Below, piece by piece: positions 7,737 to 42,500 of a DNA stretch of 54,655 nt; position 1 is the stretch's first letter; each line of letters starts with the position of its first letter. The notes below the pieces were generated by a model. That model was given only the letters and a program-made list of their open reading frames with translations, searched no databases and was not told the DNA's origin. Source of the stretch: Enterobacteria phage mEp021; sequence record MH706966. One strand, written 5' to 3'. A program made the translations under genes and the position numbers.

Positions 7737-9224
7737 TCATTGGCAGAAAACAATCTCTTTAAATGCTTTTTCTACCATGTCGAATACTTCCGGCCTGTAA
7801 TAGAAAAACTCATTGCTTCCATCAAATTTCACAGGAAAATTGATTTTATAATTACTAAAAGCCTTATGCATCGTGTTTTCTAGTTTATGTATACTTTCGG
7901 TTGGCCCTTCTAACGTTTTCACGACACACAAATCAGGGATTCTAACACCTGCTTTATGTGCGCTTTTTAATATCCGATTTCTTCGCTCGTTCTCCTTAAC
8001 ACTTACGCCGATTTTCATTTGTGTAGGTAATTCCAGATCATCAACCATGATGTAAAGTTTGCCATAATCATAACGAAAGAAACCGTATTTAGCGCATTTT
8101 TGGCAACCCCTACCGCGCTTAAGTTCTCTAGGTCTAACCGACCACTTATGATTACAAACCTTACAGCGGCATGATACTTTTTTATTTACGTTCGTTATTT
8201 CTCCCAGCACTTCAACATCAGGATTAACCTTAGCAATAGCTAAAACATGTTCTTCGTGCGTTATAATCTTCCCAGCACATTTTGGGCAACCCTTCCCGCG
8301 TTTAAGGTTGCTAGGAGTAACCGACCACTTATGATTACAAACCTTACAGCGGCATGATACTTTTTTATCTACGTTCGTTATTTCTCCCAGCACTTCAACA
8401 TCAGGATTAACCTTAGCAATAGCTAAAACATGTTCTTCGTGCGTTATAATCTTCCCAGCACATTTTGGGCAACCCTTACCGCGCTTAAGGTGGTTAGGTC
8501 TAACTGACCATTCATGATCACAAACCTTGCAGCGGCATAATACTTTTTTGTCGCCACCTGTAATTTCACCCAGCACTTCAACATCAGGATTAACCTTCGC
8601 AATGGCAGCAATTTGTTTATAATGTGATAGTCTTAGTTTTTGTGCAATTTTCACACATTTACATTTCGGGCAACCGCTCCCGTGTTTAAGGGCGTCAGGC
8701 GTAGCCGACCATACACGATCACAAATCTTGCAGCGGCATAATACTTTTGTTCTGCTATTAACAATTTTCCCCAGCACTTCAACATCAGGATTAATTCTTG
8801 AGATGGCGGCGATCTGTTCTTCGTGTGATAATCTTTTTGGCCCTTGCTTTAACATTGCGCATTTCGGGCAACCATTCCCGCGTTTAAGGTTGCTAGGAGT
8901 AACCGACCACTCATGATCACAAACCTTGCAGCGGCATAATACTTTTGTGCTGTTATTTATTATTTCCCCCAACACTTCAACATCAGGATTAATTTTAGCA
9001 ATAGCCGCAATTTGTTCTTCGTGGGATAGCCTTGCGTTCCCAGCGCATTTTGGGCAACCTTTACCGTGTTTAAGGTTGCTAGGAGTAACCGACCATTCAT
9101 GATCACAAACCTTGCAGCGGCATAATACTTTTTCCCGGCTTCCAGTAATTTCTCCCATCACTTCAACATCAGGATTAACTTTCGCAATAGCTGCAACCTG
9201 TTCTTCGTGTGTTAGCTTGCACAT
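7737..9224 (-). CDS. Six tandem Zn-ribbon modules (CxxC...GCPKC) fused to a C-terminal T5orf172/GIY-YIG-like domain
   Basis: 495 aa. A module of about 61 aa, HEEQ(V/I)AAIAKVNPDVEVLGEI...KVLCRCKVCDHEWSV.P..LKRGKGCPKCAG, is repeated six times. The C-terminus GKLYIMVDD...MKIGVS...R..IL...H...F...KINFPVKFDGSNEFF resembles T5orf172. Confidence 0.8.
   Translation of the reverse strand: MCKLTHEEQVAAIAKVNPDVEVMGEITGSREKVLCRCKVCDHEWSVTPSNLKHGKGCPKCAGNARLSHEEQIAAIAKINPDVEVLGEIINNSTKVLCRCKVCDHEWSVTPSNLKRGNGCPKCAMLKQGPKRLSHEEQIAAISRINPDVEVLGKIVNSRTKVLCRCKICDRVWSATPDALKHGSGCPKCKCVKIAQKLRLSHYKQIAAIAKVNPDVEVLGEITGGDKKVLCRCKVCDHEWSVRPNHLKRGKGCPKCAGKIITHEEHVLAIAKVNPDVEVLGEITNVDKKVSCRCKVCNHKWSVTPSNLKRGKGCPKCAGKIITHEEHVLAIAKVNPDVEVLGEITNVNKKVSCRCKVCNHKWSVRPRELKRGRGCQKCAKYGFFRYDYGKLYIMVDDLELPTQMKIGVSVKENERRNRILKSAHKAGVRIPDLCVVKTLEGPTESIHKLENTMHKAFSNYKINFPVKFDGSNEFFYYRPEVFDMVEKAFKEIVFCQ
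8138..8503 (-). repeat. Near-perfect 183-bp (61-codon) tandem duplication inside the Zn-ribbon gene
   Basis: 8138-8293 repeats at 8321-8476 with about one mismatch. The rest of the gene (to about 9215) consists of diverged copies of the same unit. Confidence 0.85.
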
Positions 9225-16835: not shown

Positions 16836-16928
16836 ATGGACGAAACATTGCTATTCATGTGCATTTGCTGGGGTTTTATTGCCTTATGCCTGTTTATCAG
16901 GTGGTTTATTGAATACCATATGAGGTGA
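16836..16928 (+). CDS. Small single-TM peptide (30 aa)
   Basis: Not in the track. MDETLLFMCICWGFIALCLFIRWFIEYHMR. Fills the gap between two genes. Confidence 0.3.
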   Translation: MDETLLFMCICWGFIALCLFIRWFIEYHMR

Positions 16929-16931
16929 TAT

Positions 16932-17126
16932 ATGGAACAGAAAACTGATTATAGAATACCTGACAACCTGAAGTTAGTTGGCATTGGTTTTGGTTGTCGT
17001 TTTGTATCTGACGCAAACGGGGCGATTTATTTAGTGCGCATCATTGATGGCGTTCAACATATAAGAAGGCTAGGACTTTACATCAAAGCATTTAGAAGAG
17101 GTTATTTGAAAACTCATGAAATTTAA
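16932..17126 (+). CDS. Hypothetical protein (64 aa)
   Basis: ORF with the RBS GAGGTGA. Confidence 0.45.
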   Translation: MEQKTDYRIPDNLKLVGIGFGCRFVSDANGAIYLVRIIDGVQHIRRLGLYIKAFRRGYLKTHEI

Positions 17127-17319
17127 ACAGTATAAAGAATGGAAGATTCCAGAAGAAGCGACAAAGGCAGCGCCCGGAATTTTTTCGGGCGTTTATTTTT
17201 ATATGGGCGGTAAATGGTATTTCGGCAGCAGGCCGGATCACTATTATCAAGAATTATGCAAATCTCACACATGGGACATTAATGAACGCGTGCAAGGCGG
17301 TGTAATAGACGAGGTTTAA
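17116..17319 (+). CDS. Hypothetical protein (67 aa)
   Basis: Overlapping, coupled ORF. Confidence 0.45.
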   Translation: MKFKQYKEWKIPEEATKAAPGIFSGVYFYMGGKWYFGSRPDHYYQELCKSHTWDINERVQGGVIDEV

Positions 17320-17320
17320 A

Positions 17321-17557
17321 ATGATTAATGGTTTTTTAAGCTGGTTAAGAGTGTGGTTTTTTGCCACGCTTTTCGTTTTTTTGGCGTTCAGCGGTGTCAT
17401 TGTCATATTTACGCTGGCGATGATGTTCATTACATGGTCAGTACCTGAATTTAACAATCTTGGAAGTATTTTTGCTGTCGCCCGCGCCATGTTTGCTTGT
17501 AGCGCATTTGTTGGTTTTTGTTGGAGTGTTTCGCCTGATTGGGATGATGAATGGTGA
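17321..17557 (+). CDS. Membrane protein (78 aa, 2-3 TM segments)
   Basis: Hydrophobic throughout (FFATLFVFLAFSGVIVIFTLAMMFI...). Confidence 0.5.
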   Translation: MINGFLSWLRVWFFATLFVFLAFSGVIVIFTLAMMFITWSVPEFNNLGSIFAVARAMFACSAFVGFCWSVSPDWDDEW

Positions 17558-17795
17558 TCCTATGGCCTTGTTCAATATGTCAGAACTGCAATTCAACGCC
17601 GTAAAAGCTGCCGCCCGCGCTGCACTTTCTGCTTGCAAAGCGGAGGTAGAGAAAAACGGCTACAGCGATAAAGCCACGCGGCTGATATTAGAAAAGCATT
17701 ATCGCAAGGTCGCCCCACTAATCAGCATTGAGCGCTTTGTGTGGTTGGTGGGGTATTTAAACAACCGTTGGGGGACGGAACAAGATTATTTCTAA
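17544..17795 (+). CDS. Hypothetical protein (about 83 aa; start 17544, 17547 or 17562)
   Basis: The track ORF 17460-17795 was trimmed to the first in-frame ATG near the upstream stop. Confidence 0.45.
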   Translation: MMNGDPMALFNMSELQFNAVKAAARAALSACKAEVEKNGYSDKATRLILEKHYRKVAPLISIERFVWLVGYLNNRWGTEQDYF

Positions 17796-17804
17796 GGGGG
17801 CGTA

Positions 17805-18344
17805 ATGAAAAATGATTTTGGAGGCAGCCACACTCCTAAGGAAATTAAAGATCTATGGCAGACGCCTAAACCAGTTTTCAGAGGAATGGACCGCGAATTT
17901 GAATTTGTCGCTGACGTGGCGGCAAACAAGGAAAATGCGCTAGTTCCTCGGTATATAACCGAAGAAATGGACACGTTGCATTATCCGTGGGGAGCTGTGG
18001 CAATGCCTGGTGAGTATGTCTGGCTTAATCCGCCATATTCTAAACCGGGGCCATTCGTTGAGAAGGCGGCATTAGAACATCAACGAAATCACATTGGCTG
18101 TGTAATGCTGTTGCCCGCTGACATTTCTGTTAGCTGGTTTATGAACGGCGTGGATACGGCAAACGAATGCCGATTAATCACGCGCGGGCGGCTGGCGTTT
18201 ATCAATGCTGCGACTGGTAAGCCAGTAAGCGGAAACAATAAAGGGAGCTTGTTTTTGATCTGGCATCCACGGTGCAGACATGAATGTATTTTTACACACA
18301 TAACACGTAAAGAGCTATACGCAAGAGGTGCAGATAATGACTAG
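17805..18344 (+). CDS. Phage Dam-type DNA N6-adenine methyltransferase
   Basis: 179 aa. WQTPKPVF...FVADVAA...NALVPRY and the catalytic LNPPYS are characteristic of the small phage Dam family. Confidence 0.8.
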   Translation: MKNDFGGSHTPKEIKDLWQTPKPVFRGMDREFEFVADVAANKENALVPRYITEEMDTLHYPWGAVAMPGEYVWLNPPYSKPGPFVEKAALEHQRNHIGCVMLLPADISVSWFMNGVDTANECRLITRGRLAFINAATGKPVSGNNKGSLFLIWHPRCRHECIFTHITRKELYARGADND

Positions 18345-18834
18345 TGCAGCAGATTTACTACGAATCGCAGCGGAAACAATTGAGCAAAGAGGTAAACAAA
18401 ACGGCTACGACAGAAAAGAGGAAAAATCAGCGCCAAAAATAGCCACTATATACAACGCTAAGAAGGGCGCAAATTTAACCCCACTTGATGTATGGGATCT
18501 GATGATTTGTCTTAAGGAGGCGCGTTTAGAGGCTATTTTGGTTAATGGCAGCGATCCCACTGACACTTTGGTTGACCTAATCAGCTACAGCGCACTAAAA
18601 GCTGAGCAAATATTGAATGATCTGGATGAAGAGTTAAAGAAAAATCAGTTCACTGCCGCCAATATTAATGATGGAATAATAAATGACGCAGCAATAACAA
18701 GCTGTAAGGGATTGCCGCCTTCAATGCTTAAACCTCAGTGTGGCTGTATTTCAAATCGGCTTGATTTGAGTTTTGACAGATCTGAAGCTATTCGCGACAA
18801 GAGGTATGACCCAAATGAAAAAGGTGACAATTGA
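18337..18834 (+). CDS. Conserved phage protein (165 aa)
   Basis: RBS GAGGTG. The N-terminus AADLLRIAAETIEQRGKQNGY...DVWDLMICLKEARL recurs in phage early regions as I recall. Function unknown. Confidence 0.5.
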   Translation: MTSAADLLRIAAETIEQRGKQNGYDRKEEKSAPKIATIYNAKKGANLTPLDVWDLMICLKEARLEAILVNGSDPTDTLVDLISYSALKAEQILNDLDEELKKNQFTAANINDGIINDAAITSCKGLPPSMLKPQCGCISNRLDLSFDRSEAIRDKRYDPNEKGDN

Positions 18835-34599: not shown

Positions 34600-34960
34600 G
34601 ATCGCGAGATTCAGCTATAAGGCATTAGCCACCATTTACCCCGTGACGCGTGACGACTGGACAAACTCCGACGTATACGGAACGCCATACCTGATTGATT
34701 GTGCATGGGAACGCACTGACGGAACCGCAACAGACGCAAACGGGAATGAGGTTAGCAACACAATAACCGTATATACCGAACTGCTTCACAAGATGCAGCC
34801 AGTACAGCGCCCGGAAAAAGGGTGGATGCTTGCCACTGGTGACACTACTGCTATTGCTGACCCGCTGGCGGCTGGGGCCAACTTTATAACCGGGATCGTT
34901 GAATGGGACATGAGCATGTTTAACGACACGCCGGACTATAAGATCGTCACAGGAGGTTAA
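34592..34960 (+). CDS. Head-tail adaptor
   Basis: 122 aa. Called on position and size. Confidence 0.5.
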   Translation: MSKIARFSYKALATIYPVTRDDWTNSDVYGTPYLIDCAWERTDGTATDANGNEVSNTITVYTELLHKMQPVQRPEKGWMLATGDTTAIADPLAAGANFITGIVEWDMSMFNDTPDYKIVTGG

Positions 34961-37725: not shown

Positions 37726-40071
37726 ATGTCCACCAGTTTAGGTACAATTTATTACGAAGTTGATGCAAAAACTGGTCAACTTCTAGTCGCTCAGAGACAG
37801 GCGGATCAGGCTTTTGACAGTATCGAGCGTGGCGCAAAACGCGCTGACCGCCAGGTTAACACGCTTAAAACTTCAATCAAAGCACTATCCAGGGTTATAC
37901 ATCTGCTACTTGCTGCGGAGGCTGTGCGCCAGTTTATTGACATGGCGGAGCAAGCAAAAATGCTTCGTGTCAAAATTAAAATGCTCACAGGTGACGCAGA
38001 GGCCGCAGGACGTGTTTTTGACGGCCTGAAAAAAATATCAAAGGAAACCGGGCAAAGCCTTAAAGACACTGGCGAATTGTGGCAAGGCCTGGCTATTTCA
38101 CTAAAGAATACTTCCGCTACGGAAGGCCAATTGCTCAACCTGGTTGGCACTATTCAGAAGATGGGGGCGTTAGGAGGCGCGTCAGCGGAACAGATGTCTA
38201 ATTCTATGCGCCAGTTCCGCCAGTCTATAGACGGCGGCGTGCTGCGTGCTGAAGAGTTTAACAGCCTGTTAGAGAACACGCCGACCATCGTACAGACAAT
38301 GGCCCGCCATATGGGGTTGTCAATGGGCCAGTTCCGCGCCGAAATGCTGGACGGCAAGATCACGGCTGAAAGGATGGTTAACGCGATTCAGGCAGCTACA
38401 CAGGAAACAAACGAGAAGTTTGCACAGTTGCCGCGCACGTCCGGCAAGGCTATCAATGAGCTTAAAGTTGAGGTGATGGGGCTTGTCGAACAACTTGACG
38501 ATCTTTTCGGCATATCAGATGGCGTTGTATCAGCTATCGACTTAATAACTGGCGGCGTTGAGGGATTAGGTAAAGGCGCTAAATTCGCCGCAACCTGTTT
38601 TAATACACTCAAAACGGCTGGCAGTGAGTTCATAGACATGTTTGACGACGTGGCTGTTAAGGCTGGCGAGGTGGCGGAAGAAATCATTAGAATGGTAACG
38701 CCAATCAAGGCGCTAATGGATGGCTACAAATGGATGAAGGAGATTGTAGGAAAGCAAACAGAAGAATATAACACCAATTATGAGAAGAAATACGGTAAAA
38801 GACTTGGTAAGGGAATGCAATTTTGGGATGATTGGCAGGCCGTACTTAACCAAACAAAAGAAAACAAGGGAACCGACACCGCTGACGACGGCAAGATCAC
38901 CGGATTCGAGCCACCAGTAGATAAGCCAGGAAAACCGAAAAAAGGAAAAAAAGACAAGAAATCTGAAGCTGATCGGCTTGGTGATGAAGGTATAAAAGTG
39001 TCCGACCAGTACAACAAGGACGCCGCCGCTATGCGCAAAGCATTAGAGAACGGCAAGGCCATTGATGCTGCATTCGCCCAGGGCAAAATCACCCTCCTTG
39101 AGTACAAGGCCGCGCAAAAGGGGATAGGCAAGGAACTGAAGGACGAATTGGCACAAATCCCGGTGGAAGAATTGCAAGATAAATGGGCGCACATAGTAAG
39201 CCCAATGGATCAGCTTAAGGGCGAAATTGACCCAATCAAACAGGCGCAGAATGAGTGGGCTGTCAGAAAACAAATGCTATTAGACCTGGGAGCTACAGAA
39301 GCGCAACAGAGACAGGCGCAGTTAGAATATGAGCAACAGATCAGGGATCTGAAGTGGGAGCAATGGCAGGCGCAAAGCGACACAAACAGCCTGATTGGTG
39401 CTTGTGTTAGCGGCCTCAAGGGTGGCATGGGTAATGCGCTTACTGGCCTGTTAAACGGTACTCAATCATTAAGCGAGGTTTTTGCCAACCTGGGAAGCAG
39501 CATACTTAACACCGTAGGCAATAAACTTTCGGAAATAGCCGCTAACTGGATAGCAGATCAATTGATGATGGAAACGCAAAGCAAGGCTACACAGGCAAGT
39601 ACAGCGGCTGGCGCTGTGGCAGCGCAGGGCGAGATTGCTGCGGCAGCGGCCCCGGCAGCGGCTGCGACGGCGGCATCAACTGGCGGTAGCTGGGCGGCGG
39701 CTGGTGCTGCGGCGCTTTCTGCTATCATGTCGCTGGCAACGTCAATTTTTGGCGGCGGTCGTTATAATGGTGGTTCTGTGAATGGTGGCAGTCTGTATCG
39801 CGTAGGGGAACACGGAATACCGGAGCTATTCCAGACGAGCAACGGGCGTCAGTATATGATTCCTGGGGAAAATGGCAGGGTTATTCCTGGCCGCGATCTT
39901 TTCAGTGGTGGCAGCATCAGTATGCCTGTTAACATTACCGTTCAGACCACAAACGGGTTTAGCGAAGAGGACAGTCGCAGATTGCAAGACGCCATGAAAC
40001 GCGTTGCAATGGGAGTAATTAAAGAGCAAAGTTCAAGGCCCGGAGGTCTTATCCAACCACGAAGAAAATAA
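37726..40071 (+). CDS. Tape measure protein
   Basis: 781 aa, largely helical, with a Gly/Ala-rich hydrophobic segment near the C-terminus. Confidence 0.9.
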   Translation: MSTSLGTIYYEVDAKTGQLLVAQRQADQAFDSIERGAKRADRQVNTLKTSIKALSRVIHLLLAAEAVRQFIDMAEQAKMLRVKIKMLTGDAEAAGRVFDGLKKISKETGQSLKDTGELWQGLAISLKNTSATEGQLLNLVGTIQKMGALGGASAEQMSNSMRQFRQSIDGGVLRAEEFNSLLENTPTIVQTMARHMGLSMGQFRAEMLDGKITAERMVNAIQAATQETNEKFAQLPRTSGKAINELKVEVMGLVEQLDDLFGISDGVVSAIDLITGGVEGLGKGAKFAATCFNTLKTAGSEFIDMFDDVAVKAGEVAEEIIRMVTPIKALMDGYKWMKEIVGKQTEEYNTNYEKKYGKRLGKGMQFWDDWQAVLNQTKENKGTDTADDGKITGFEPPVDKPGKPKKGKKDKKSEADRLGDEGIKVSDQYNKDAAAMRKALENGKAIDAAFAQGKITLLEYKAAQKGIGKELKDELAQIPVEELQDKWAHIVSPMDQLKGEIDPIKQAQNEWAVRKQMLLDLGATEAQQRQAQLEYEQQIRDLKWEQWQAQSDTNSLIGACVSGLKGGMGNALTGLLNGTQSLSEVFANLGSSILNTVGNKLSEIAANWIADQLMMETQSKATQASTAAGAVAAQGEIAAAAAPAAAATAASTGGSWAAAGAAALSAIMSLATSIFGGGRYNGGSVNGGSLYRVGEHGIPELFQTSNGRQYMIPGENGRVIPGRDLFSGGSISMPVNITVQTTNGFSEEDSRRLQDAMKRVAMGVIKEQSSRPGGLIQPRRK

Positions 40072-40089
40072 TTTATTGATTTAATCTTA

Positions 40090-40123
40090 CGCCCGCAAGA
40101 TAATGACGTATCCTTGCGGGCTT
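40090..40123. terminator. Bidirectional hairpin terminator between the tape measure gene (+) and the minus-strand island
   Basis: GCCCGCAAG-N13-CTTGCGGGC followed by TTTGCTT. Confidence 0.65.
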
Positions 40124-40126
40124 TGC

Positions 40127-41461
40127 TTACGCGGCTTTTATAATTTCTTTATACTTATCTTCCACCATGTTAAAAACCTCTGGTCTGTAGTAGAAAAATT
40201 CGCAACTACCATCAAATTTTACTGGGAAGTTAATTTTGTAATTATTAAGGGTTTTGTGTATCGCGCCTTCTAGTTCATAGATATTTTGTGTCGGACCTTC
40301 TAATGTTTTTACGATATGCAAATCAGGAATCGTTACACCCGCTTTATGTGCGCTACTTAGTATTCTATTTCTTCGTTCGTTTTCCTTAACACTTACCCCT
40401 ACTTTCATTAGCGTTGGTACTTCCAGATCGTCAACCATGATATAAAGTTTGCCGCGTTCGTAGGATAAAAAACCCTTTTTAGCACATTTAGAACAGCCGC
40501 TACCTTCCTTAAGTTTTTGCGGCGTGGTTCGCCACTTATAACCACACACTTTACATAAACACGATACTTTGTTTTTATTCCCTGTTATTTTACCTACCAC
40601 TTTGATATTAGGGTTGATGTTGGCAATGGCTTTTACTTGCTCATCATGTGATATTCTTCGTGCTTGCGATCCTTTTCGTTTCGCACACTTCGGGCAACCA
40701 GTACCTTTTTTAAGGCTGGCTGGAGTAGTTAACCACTCATGACTGCAAGACTTACAGCGGCATAACGTTCTCGTAGTATTGTTAATAATTTTTTCTAATA
40801 CCTCAACGCTAGGACTGGTTTTCGCAATAACTGCAATTTGTTCTTCATGTGATAGTTTGGTGTGTCCGCTACATTTCGGGCAGCCAGTACCATGCTTGAT
40901 GTTGTTGGGAGTTGCTGGCCATTCATGATTGCAAATCTTACATTTGCATAATACTTTTTTTAAACTCGCAGATTAAAAGGGGTTTTATTCAATATTGCTG
41001 TTAACCTTCGCAATAGCTGCAACTTGTTCTTCATGCGTTAATCTTCTATCTGCGCATTTTGGGCAACCTTGCCCGATTTTAAGTGTTTCAGGTCTAGCCA
41101 ACCATTCATGATCACAAACTTTGCAATGGCATAATACCTTTGTTTTATTATTAATAATTACCCCTAACACCTTAATATCAGGATTAACTTTAGCAATAAT
41201 TGCAACCTGTTCTTCGTGTGGTAATGCCCGTTTTTGTGCTCTTTTTAACGCCGCACATTTAGGGCAACCAACACCGCGCTTAAGATCAGCAGGTCTACCA
41301 AACCATTCGTGATTACAAGTTTTGCAGCAGCATGATACTTTTTCCATATTCCCGGTAATTACCCCTATCACCTCGATATTGGGGTTAACTTTTGCAATAG
41401 CGGCAACTTGTTCTTCGTGTGTTAATTTTTTTGTCATAATACCGCTCCTACAATCTTCCAT
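40127..41461 (-). pseudogene. Second Zn-ribbon-array/T5orf172 paralogue (five modules), interrupted by two in-frame TAA codons
   Basis: One 445-codon frame. The track ORFs 40985-41461 and 40127-40600 are its two ends. Stops are at 40985-40987 and 40973-40975, and there is no start codon for the 120 codons in between. Confidence 0.65.
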
Positions 41462-41547
41462 TCCGTCCTACATAACTCCTGCCGAACATTACCAACCAGA
41501 TGCTCCAGATCTCCCGCCATGTGTATTTCTCATTCTTCATACCCGCC

Positions 41548-41802
41548 TCACTTATGAGCGCCTTTTACGCCACATAACTTGTTATAAAAATGGTGCTCAA
41601 CGATTAACCAAACCCTCAGATCTTCACTGAACAGCCGCCAATCAGGATTAATGTCAAACTTCCAGCCATAACCATCGCGTAACTTTTTGGGGTTGGCCTC
41701 TTTCTTCAGGAAAGCATTTAATAAGGCTTTTCCCTTTTTGATGATCCGGTCCTGTGCGTTTTTCTGTGCTTTCAGGTTTTTACCAATCGCCACCAATTTC
41801 AT
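41548..41802 (-). CDS. Basic 84-aa protein (weak RelE/ParE-like look)
   Basis: Trimmed to the ATG with RBS GGGGTGG. ...KKLRDGYGWKFDINPDWRLFSEDLRVWLIVEHH. Confidence 0.5.
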   Translation of the reverse strand: MKLVAIGKNLKAQKNAQDRIIKKGKALLNAFLKKEANPKKLRDGYGWKFDINPDWRLFSEDLRVWLIVEHHFYNKLCGVKGAHK

Positions 41803-41820
41803 AATCCACCCCGCAATCAA

Positions 41821-41976
41821 TTAGTTGACCACTTTCAGGAAGAAATCACAGTATTCATCTTCTTTTGCATTCATCATGAACTGACCGTATTTGAATGCGT
41901 CATCAAAGCCTTTTACAATCGCCACTTCCACCTGTTCGAATGCGTTGTTCAGCATTACCACTACATAGCGTTTCAT
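41821..41976 (-). CDS. Acidic 51-aa protein
   Basis: Trimmed to the ATG with the strong RBS AAGGAGGGG. Its stop is 18 nt upstream of the next gene's start. Confidence 0.45.
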   Translation of the reverse strand: MKRYVVVMLNNAFEQVEVAIVKGFDDAFKYGQFMMNAKEDEYCDFFLKVVN

Positions 41977-42042
41977 GATGCCCCTCCTTTGTTGGTACTG
42001 CTTTCTCTTCTTGCCTCCTATATACATCTTGTTACGTCATGT

Positions 42043-42146: not shown

Positions 42147-42500
42147 ATGCCTGAAGTTTTCAGATGGACGCCGCAAAGAAGCTACAGCGTGACCAGGGAA
42201 CCAAATGTGTCGGTCGTTAAACTTGGTGATGGTTATGAACAGCGCCAGGCTAAAGGGATTAACACGTTGCTTGATAGCTACACCCTGGTTTTTAAAGGCA
42301 GTAGCGCAGGATGCGGTGATAGTGGGAACGTGGCGATCCAGGCAGAAGCATTCTTGAGGGCGCGCGGCGCTGTCGAGGCTTTTTACTGGTCGCCGTCTAT
42401 GGATGGTGTGCAAAGGCTTTTTGTTTGCCGTAGCTGGAGTATGACAAAGGACGGGCCTGTATACACGCTAAACGCAACATTTGAGCAAGTTGTCAGTTAG
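42147..42500 (+). CDS. Minor tail protein M
   Basis: 117 aa. FRWTPQRSYSVTREPNVSVVKLGDGYEQRQAKGIN is typical of lambda gpM. Confidence 0.8.
   Translation: MPEVFRWTPQRSYSVTREPNVSVVKLGDGYEQRQAKGINTLLDSYTLVFKGSSAGCGDSGNVAIQAEAFLRARGAVEAFYWSPSMDGVQRLFVCRSWSMTKDGPVYTLNATFEQVVS

Follow-up and report, generated by a model that had tools for sequence, protein, structure and literature searches.

Enterobacteria phage mEp021 is a temperate, Nus-dependent, non-lambdoid siphovirus of Escherichia coli and belongs to the mEpimmI group (PMC11893012), of which it is the archetype. Its complete coliphage genome of 54,655 bp, deposited as MH706966, constitutes the window analyzed here. Between the tape-measure gene and the gene of the minor tail protein gpM, on the opposite strand, lies a gene coding for an array of zinc fingers followed by a T5orf172 domain, a location given in a first-pass annotation of the sequence and borne out by our analysis (Table 1). 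GenBank carries this T5orf172 gene in two parts, annotated as mEp021_65 and the gene that follows it.

Table 1. Coordinates of the features discussed in the text, numbered along the whole window.
Feature	Position	Strand	Evidence or remark
Intact paralogue of the early left arm, 495 aa, six zinc-finger modules and T5orf172	7737..9224	-	60% identical to the tail-slot copy
Tape-measure protein gene, bounding the slot on the left	37726..40071	+	PF20155, E 2.3e-51
GC-rich hairpin, 9-bp stem	40091..40121	.	Between the converging tape-measure and T5orf172 genes
CapR/DUF4379 zinc-finger array (x5) and T5orf172 gene	40127..41437	-	Translation, orthologues, four-way alignment, Pfam/PHROG
T5orf172 domain, GIY-YIG-type fold (GKLYIM…MKVGVS…R…E…EFF)	40139..40453	-	
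Zinc-finger module 5	40484..40648	-	Pfam and motif
Zinc-finger module 4	40685..40849	-	Pfam and motif
Zinc-finger module 3, carrying the 16-nt block in its linker	40871..41035	-	Pfam and motif
16-nt block, putative SOLiD colour-space mistranslation	40972..40987	-	Holds both TAA codons
Second in-frame TAA	40973..40975	-	True codon most likely ATT (Ile155)
First in-frame TAA	40985..40987	-	True codon most likely ATT (Ile151)
Zinc-finger module 2	41054..41218	-	Pfam and motif
Zinc-finger module 1 (HEEQ helix and CxxC-x17-CxxC)	41255..41419	-	Pfam and motif
Shine-Dalgarno AGGAG	41445..41449	-	7 nt upstream of ATG 41437; conserved in mEp013, L002 and L003
ParE-like toxin-domain gene (84-aa form)	41548..41802	-	PF24732, E 2.7e-12; adjoins the slot
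gpM gene (minor tail protein), bounding the opposite-strand island on the right	42147..42500	+	PF05939, E 6.2e-29

Comparison of related phages, for which the first-pass annotation had called, reveals that the content of the interval between the tape-measure and ParE-like genes (40072-41547) differs among close relatives. The CapR-array/T5orf172 gene is found there in mEp021, in mEp013 and in E. coli AASAVZ01, and it is intact in mEp013 and in the E. coli prophage; the HNH endonuclease gene mEp515_91 is found instead in mEp515 (L004 40645-41821); and the slot is empty, with ORFs of 90-180 nt only, in mEp010 and mEp554 (L006 4411-4951 and L007 4106-4560, respectively). On this comparison of sequences, the slot is a hot spot for nuclease cassettes. 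The ParE-like gene beside it is kept in all mEpimmI phages, and prophages in 28 complete E. coli genomes have it as well. At 41548-42027 (minus strand), this gene (84-90 aa, PF24732) stands downstream of a 68-aa ORF of the same strand (phrog_29810), and the two may form a toxin-antitoxin or addiction module inside the tail operon, with no antitoxin family recognized beside the ParE-like gene and no PADLOC or NCBIfam match. At the other end of the slot, a GC-rich hairpin, in which GCCCGCAAG and CTTGCGGGC are separated by 13 nt, is likely a bidirectional terminator for both converging genes; mEp515, mEp010 and mEp554 have annotated terminators at the equivalent site behind their tape-measure genes. 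Our promoter and terminator scan returned nothing beyond chance expectation, the hairpin having been missed by the consensus search because its loop is too long. A further HNH endonuclease gene, mEp515_72 (L004 30511-30999), separates the head-decoration gene of mEp515 from the head gene that follows; mEp021 has no counterpart at the corresponding position (~31190), and the HNH gene of mEp013 is located elsewhere (mEp013_67). Several independent homing-endonuclease insertions set apart these phages, which are otherwise syntenic.

The architecture described in the first-pass annotation, namely five ribbon modules and a T5orf172-like C-terminus, is confirmed. Five CxxC-x17-CxxC motifs, each preceded by a HEEQ helix, were counted in the tail-slot gene of mEp021, in modules of ~62-68 aa. 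The intact orthologue matches PF14311 (DUF4379, a treble-clef zinc finger) over five stretches (E 2.4e-26) and PF21817 (CapR; E 3e-19). With a cut-off of 20 bits, PF10544 (T5orf172) scored 24.1 for the ORF at 40127-40600, 23.8 for the orthologue mEp013_88 and 22.3 for the left-arm copy. The nuclease domain has an alpha/beta fold of the GIY-YIG type, and GKLYIM, MKVGVS, ERRNR, ELEGAIH and CEFFYY, which are conserved between the paralogs, are candidate motifs for the catalytic Tyr, Arg and Glu of GIY-YIG nucleases. The gene falls in "endonuclease" families of PHROGs. Searches with other resources were less informative: PADLOC gave no match for the restored protein, the ParE-like protein or its 68-aa neighbour, NCBIfam gave no informative match, and a PDB sequence search gave a weak DUF4379 match only. 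The gene is of the free-standing homing-endonuclease type and is an ordinary member of the known T5orf172/CapR-DUF4379 family, which agrees with the mobile, homing-type class proposed at first; it is the second, paralogous gene of this type in the genome.

In the deposited sequence, positions 40127-41461 of the minus strand form a single frame of 445 codons, ending with a TAA at 40127-40129, as first annotated. The true start is the ATG at 41437 (MTKKLTHEEQ…), as in all orthologues, and not the ATG at 41461. The two in-frame TAA codons reported inside this frame were both found in the deposited record, and the 16-nt block that holds them indeed falls in the helix-to-ribbon linker of module 3. 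GenBank entries AXN54185.1 (158 aa) and AXN54184.1 (mEp021_65, 157 aa) are identical to the two half-ORFs of mEp021, and both stops are therefore present in the sequence as submitted. After the second TAA, the first in-frame ATG, GTG or TTG is the GTG at 40600, as stated in the first-pass annotation. The additional proposal that a truncated product, consisting of one ribbon plus the nuclease-like domain, could be made from this GTG finds no support in the sequence: no Shine-Dalgarno precedes it, and because an upstream ribosome-binding site is lacking such a product is unlikely.

Apart from the 16-nt block, the gene shows no lesion. The sequence of mEp021 was aligned with those of mEp013 (mEp013_88, intact, 436 aa), of a prophage from an E. 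coli draft genome (L002) and of a Logan contig (L003). Nucleotide identity between orthologues is 89-94% along the gene, with the 16-nt block as sole exception, and no other stop or frameshift occurs in the 1,311 nt of the gene. Against three orthologues, dN/dS was 0.12-0.18 on either side of the block; divergence at this level shows both halves under purifying selection. Among the 15 members listed of a 90% identity cluster (19 members), 14 are 436-438 aa in length, and the exception is the 158-aa fragment of mEp021 itself. The ORF of L002 is intact, the "324-aa" call at NCBI being an annotation from an internal Met. Finally, complementing the block in mEp021 yields an ORF of 436 aa, in which the segment EILGKITASLKK is the same in P0001 and P0004, and the segment …NIEILGKITASLKK… is identical to the nearest orthologues.

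The relation between the block and its orthologous counterpart is peculiar. On the coding strand, mEp021 reads GAA-TAAAACCCCTTTTAAT-CTGCG and L002 reads GAA-ATTTTGGGGAAAATTA-CTGCA; the block is the exact non-reversed complement of the L002 sequence at 16 of 16 positions, with identical flanks. Inside the block, the L003 and mEp013 sequences depart from that of L002 at 1-2 nt only. The plus strand deposited at 40972-40987 is ATTAAAAGGGGTTTTA, and the plus strand matching ATTTTGGGGAAAATTA would be TAATTTTCCCCAAAAT. To our knowledge, no replication, repair or recombination process makes the strand of reversed polarity that such an in-place complement requires. Real inversion of the quasi-palindrome AATTTT-GGGG-AAAATT was considered and rejected by inspection, as it changes the loop only: inversion of the orthologous block would give TAATTTTCCCCAAAAT, which is 12 mismatches away from the deposited block. 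Ectopic templating was likewise ruled out, because no donor exists elsewhere in the genome, AAAACCCCTTTT and its reverse complement being absent from the rest of the 54,655 nt. Genome, viral and metagenome collections were scanned for the conserved flanks with Ns over the block, which gave 0 matches, and no entry was recovered by exact identity for the proteins of the two half-ORFs, the tape-measure protein or the ParE-like protein.

These observations weigh against a biological reading, according to which the stops are a real lesion and the gene a recently inactivated, split T5orf172 homing-endonuclease gene (HEG) encoding at most a 150-aa N-terminal fragment, in which two zinc-finger modules are complete and a third is only begun. 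Such a lesion would agree with a record in which the stops are present and two genes are annotated, with reports that phage HEGs are unstable and variably present (PMC10448857), and with a slot that is dispensable, since it is empty in mEp010 and mEp554. It would, however, require 16 adjacent changes, all to the Watson-Crick complement, between perfectly conserved flanks, and it would leave unexplained the lack of a second lesion and the purifying selection on both halves, whereas a platform-specific explanation fits exactly. We thus regard a real lesion as very unlikely. Its extended version, in which the block is real, was created by a novel in-place-complement mutation and left a naturally split HEG whose 150-aa N-terminal product (two complete modules plus the start of a third) acts as a CapR-like DNA-binding regulator, is highly improbable; if true, it would mean that a nuclease was caught during its domestication. 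In terms of what defines a pseudogene, the lesion corresponds to no known mutational process and further signs of decay are missing. The earlier description of a "decaying or split copy" is hence unsupported, given the 16-nt complement block, the absence of a second lesion and the low dN/dS on both sides.

The platform-specific explanation stems from the way the genome was determined. According to section 2.6 of the methods, mEp021 was sequenced with AB SOLiD, and Velvet built eight contigs de novo from the reads; the assembly, which the authors report inspecting, was "manually edited to remove errors," and Sanger sequencing was restricted to the gaps between contigs (PMC11893012). SOLiD was used for the mEp021 genome alone, the five sister phages having been sequenced with Illumina (PMC11893012). 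SOLiD colours are a two-base code, each colour being the XOR of adjacent base codes, so that a sequence and its complement share one colour string and any given colour string corresponds to four base strings (PMC4569514). As described for SATRAP, every misread colour sets off a chain of translation errors, and two bad colours can enclose a segment that is translated in the wrong frame (PMC4569514).

The block bears the marks expected from this process. When an 81-nt stretch of mEp021 and L002 was re-encoded in colours, the two agreed at every colour inside the block and disagreed by a single isolated colour at its left edge (0->3) and another at its right edge (1->2), both XOR 3. Three genuine SNPs near the block each appeared as an adjacent pair of colour changes, as expected. 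In ~120 kb of pairwise alignments, the 16-nt block was the only constant-transform block of at least 10 nt. Blocks of 5-9 nt were equally common in an Illumina-vs-Illumina control, and they therefore carry no evidential weight; short constant-transform blocks alone are not diagnostic. An example was observed at 34750-34757, where mEp021 has GGTTAGCA and both mEp515 and L002 have AACCGATG, an 8-nt run of pure transitions (XOR 2). Since mEp013 shares the mEp021 version, this difference is a polymorphism or an alignment effect rather than a SOLiD artefact.

The position of the block within the assembly was reconstructed from the published gap-closing primers, of which five or six out of 16 were unplaced. 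The others were placed at ~10.3, 14.4/14.6, 33.5/34.0, 51.6/51.8, 52.9/53.1 and 54.3 kb. To judge from the placed gap primers, all at least 6.9 kb distant, the block lies without Sanger cover inside SOLiD contig "1," a 17.6-kb contig extending from ~34.0 to 51.6 kb, with the nearest Sanger-closed gap ~6.9 kb away. No independent mEp021 sequence was found over the site: the sole other record, the older Sanger fragment JQ072023, is a 100% match to 16919-18368 and covers only 16.9-18.4 kb. The primers themselves show discrepancies. Primers 5fwd, 1fwd and 6rev (10294, 34044 and 54325) display apparent single-base indels relative to the deposited sequence; 2rev, 4fwd, 4rev, 8fwd and 8rev have no match in the genome at up to 4 mismatches; and 5rev has a doubtful match with 5 mismatches. 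Apparently, either the sequence at contig ends was changed once the primers had been designed, or the published table contains errors. These discrepancies are a further hint that the mEp021 record deserves resequencing.

Two other explanations deserve consideration. Human editing could have introduced the block if 16 bases had been taken over from the lower strand of a double-stranded display and read 3'->5', which would produce exactly a non-reversed complement, indistinguishable from a colour-space error, in an assembly known to have been "manually edited to remove errors" (PMC11893012). Nonetheless, nothing would call for typing in 16 bases by hand at a point well inside a 17.6-kb contig and remote from all gaps, whereas a colour-space error arises without human intervention and has been documented (PMC4569514); we consider such a slip very unlikely indeed, and its consequence is the same as that of a colour-space error, i.e., stops that are not biological. 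Alternatively, the stops could be bypassed or switched, through programmed readthrough, recoding or an invertible hairpin switch (TAAAA-CCCC-TTTTA) toggling the gene. The block does hold a 5-bp stem with a 4-nt loop, and the reverse-complemented 16-mer also opens the frame (…E-I-K-R-G-F-T…). However, readthrough would have to operate on two TAA codons 12 nt apart without any known recoding signal, and a switch would lack flanking inverted repeats and an associated invertase in a segment of 16 nt, far below any known invertible one. Moreover, the residues ILGKIT, conserved in the orthologues, are not recovered from the inverted form but match exactly after simple complementation. Bypass or switching is therefore exceedingly improbable.

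Altogether, the two stops are very probably an artefact of sequence production, namely an error in SOLiD colour-space decoding. When the de novo SOLiD contig was converted into bases, positions 40972-40987 would have been written in the wrong colour-space "frame," and the bases therefore appear as the non-reversed complement of the true ones. In mEp021 we find together a de novo SOLiD assembly, a constant XOR block and, by the primer positions, a site outside any Sanger read. Known SOLiD translation errors likewise affect a stretch between two unreliable colours, read in one of three wrong "frames," here the complement frame (PMC4569514). They usually consist of long mistranslated tails or Ns, in contrast to the short 16-nt block with two stops that reached the finished genome of mEp021. 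Several points nevertheless speak against the artefact: the site lacks a second, independent mEp021 sequence; the block is the only one of its kind in the genome, and there is therefore no repeated artefact pattern to lean on; the assembly was inspected and edited by its authors; and phage homing-endonuclease genes are often genuinely degraded (PMC10448857). The physical phage DNA would carry an orthologue-like sequence at this position, most probably ATTTTGGGGAAAATTA on the coding strand, reading …E-I-L-G-K-I-T…. Because the block carries the fingerprint of a SOLiD decoding error, the gene is most likely intact and an ordinary homing-endonuclease-type gene, and the break that seemed its distinctive feature is most probably not real. 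Assembly error in the TAA codons was foreseen in the first-pass annotation as an outcome that would overturn its reading, and it is toward this outcome that the evidence points.

The first-pass annotation had opposed an intact copy in the replication operon to a decaying or split copy in the tail operon, and interpreted the pair as the result of a transposition within the genome. A second intact copy does exist; the decay of the tail copy is not supported, the complement block bearing the signature of an artefact. In the suggested pairwise comparison of the two loci, the proteins are only 60% identical, which speaks against a recent intragenomic transposition; the tail-slot copy has positional orthologues in mEp013 and in the E. 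coli prophage with 89-94% nucleotide identity. Transposition within the genome is thus unsupported. The left-arm gene also varies among relatives. In mEp515, which is 98.3% identical to mEp021 across the left 25 kb, the Bro-N/Ant-like gene mEp515_13 (L004 7739-8482) replaces the left-arm T5orf172 gene amid surroundings of that same 98.3% identity, a clean cassette exchange between two types of DNA-binding genes. Bro-N/Ant-like genes are often found associated with T5orf172 in the literature. The mEp515 gene had been considered as a shortened two-module allele of the left-arm gene, which is wrong, as mEp515_13 is an unrelated Bro-N-like protein.

With an intact reading frame most likely restored, the tail-slot gene finds its closest parallels among T5orf172 HEGs with "beads-on-a-string" CapR/DUF723/DUF4379 zinc fingers, which adjoin essential phage genes and are variably present (Barth, Dunham & Seed 2023, PMC10448857). 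Like the putative HEGs of Vibrio phage ICP1 (gp174, gp165 and others), T5-like and other phages (PMC10448857), it combines a C-terminal T5orf172 domain of the GIY-YIG superfamily with an N-terminal array of CxxC…CxxC fingers matching CapR and DUF4379. It is also free-standing next to an essential structural gene, here the tape-measure gene, shows presence/absence polymorphism in close relatives and has a paralogous copy in the same genome. The differences lie in the carrier, which is a temperate siphovirus infecting E. coli (mEpimmI group) and neither ICP1 nor T5, and in the modules, five in the tail copy and six in the left-arm copy, which are very regular (~62-68 aa), each with a HEEQ helix; cleavage at a target site and homing are putative for all members of this E. 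coli clade. The CapR protein of PLE shares with the mEp021 protein a zinc-finger DNA-binding domain of the PF21817 CapR homology type, whose four cysteines CapR requires in order to bind DNA (Netter et al. 2021, PMC8096241). CapR is, however, a single-domain transcriptional repressor encoded by a phage satellite and devoid of nuclease (PMC8096241), whereas the mEp021 protein joins T5orf172 to five fingers. The arrangement differs further from that of the T4 GIY-YIG enzymes, in that the nuclease of mEp021 is C-terminal, its binding array has five fingers and the gene has no association with an intron. I-TevI, the GIY-YIG homing endonuclease of T4, has an N-terminal nuclease and binds DNA through an HTH and one structural zinc finger.

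By analogy with the family, the finger array would recognize an extended and specific DNA site, near which the GIY-YIG-type domain would cut. Repair from the genome carrying the HEG would then spread the gene together with flanking tail-gene alleles during co-infection, and cutting may promote the inheritance of the gene itself or exclude competing phages.

The practical consequences reach beyond this locus. The public reference genome of mEp021 probably contains an error that splits one gene of 436 aa into two "hypothetical proteins." A simple forensic test applies to any assembly of the SOLiD era: comparison with a relative in colour space, in search of constant-XOR blocks between isolated colour changes. 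More generally, the sequencing platform needs to be checked wherever a "broken gene" is called in an old short-read assembly. The biological weight of the finding is small: the story of decay falls, and the tail-slot gene of mEp021 most likely takes its place as an ordinary member of a described family of phage HEGs.
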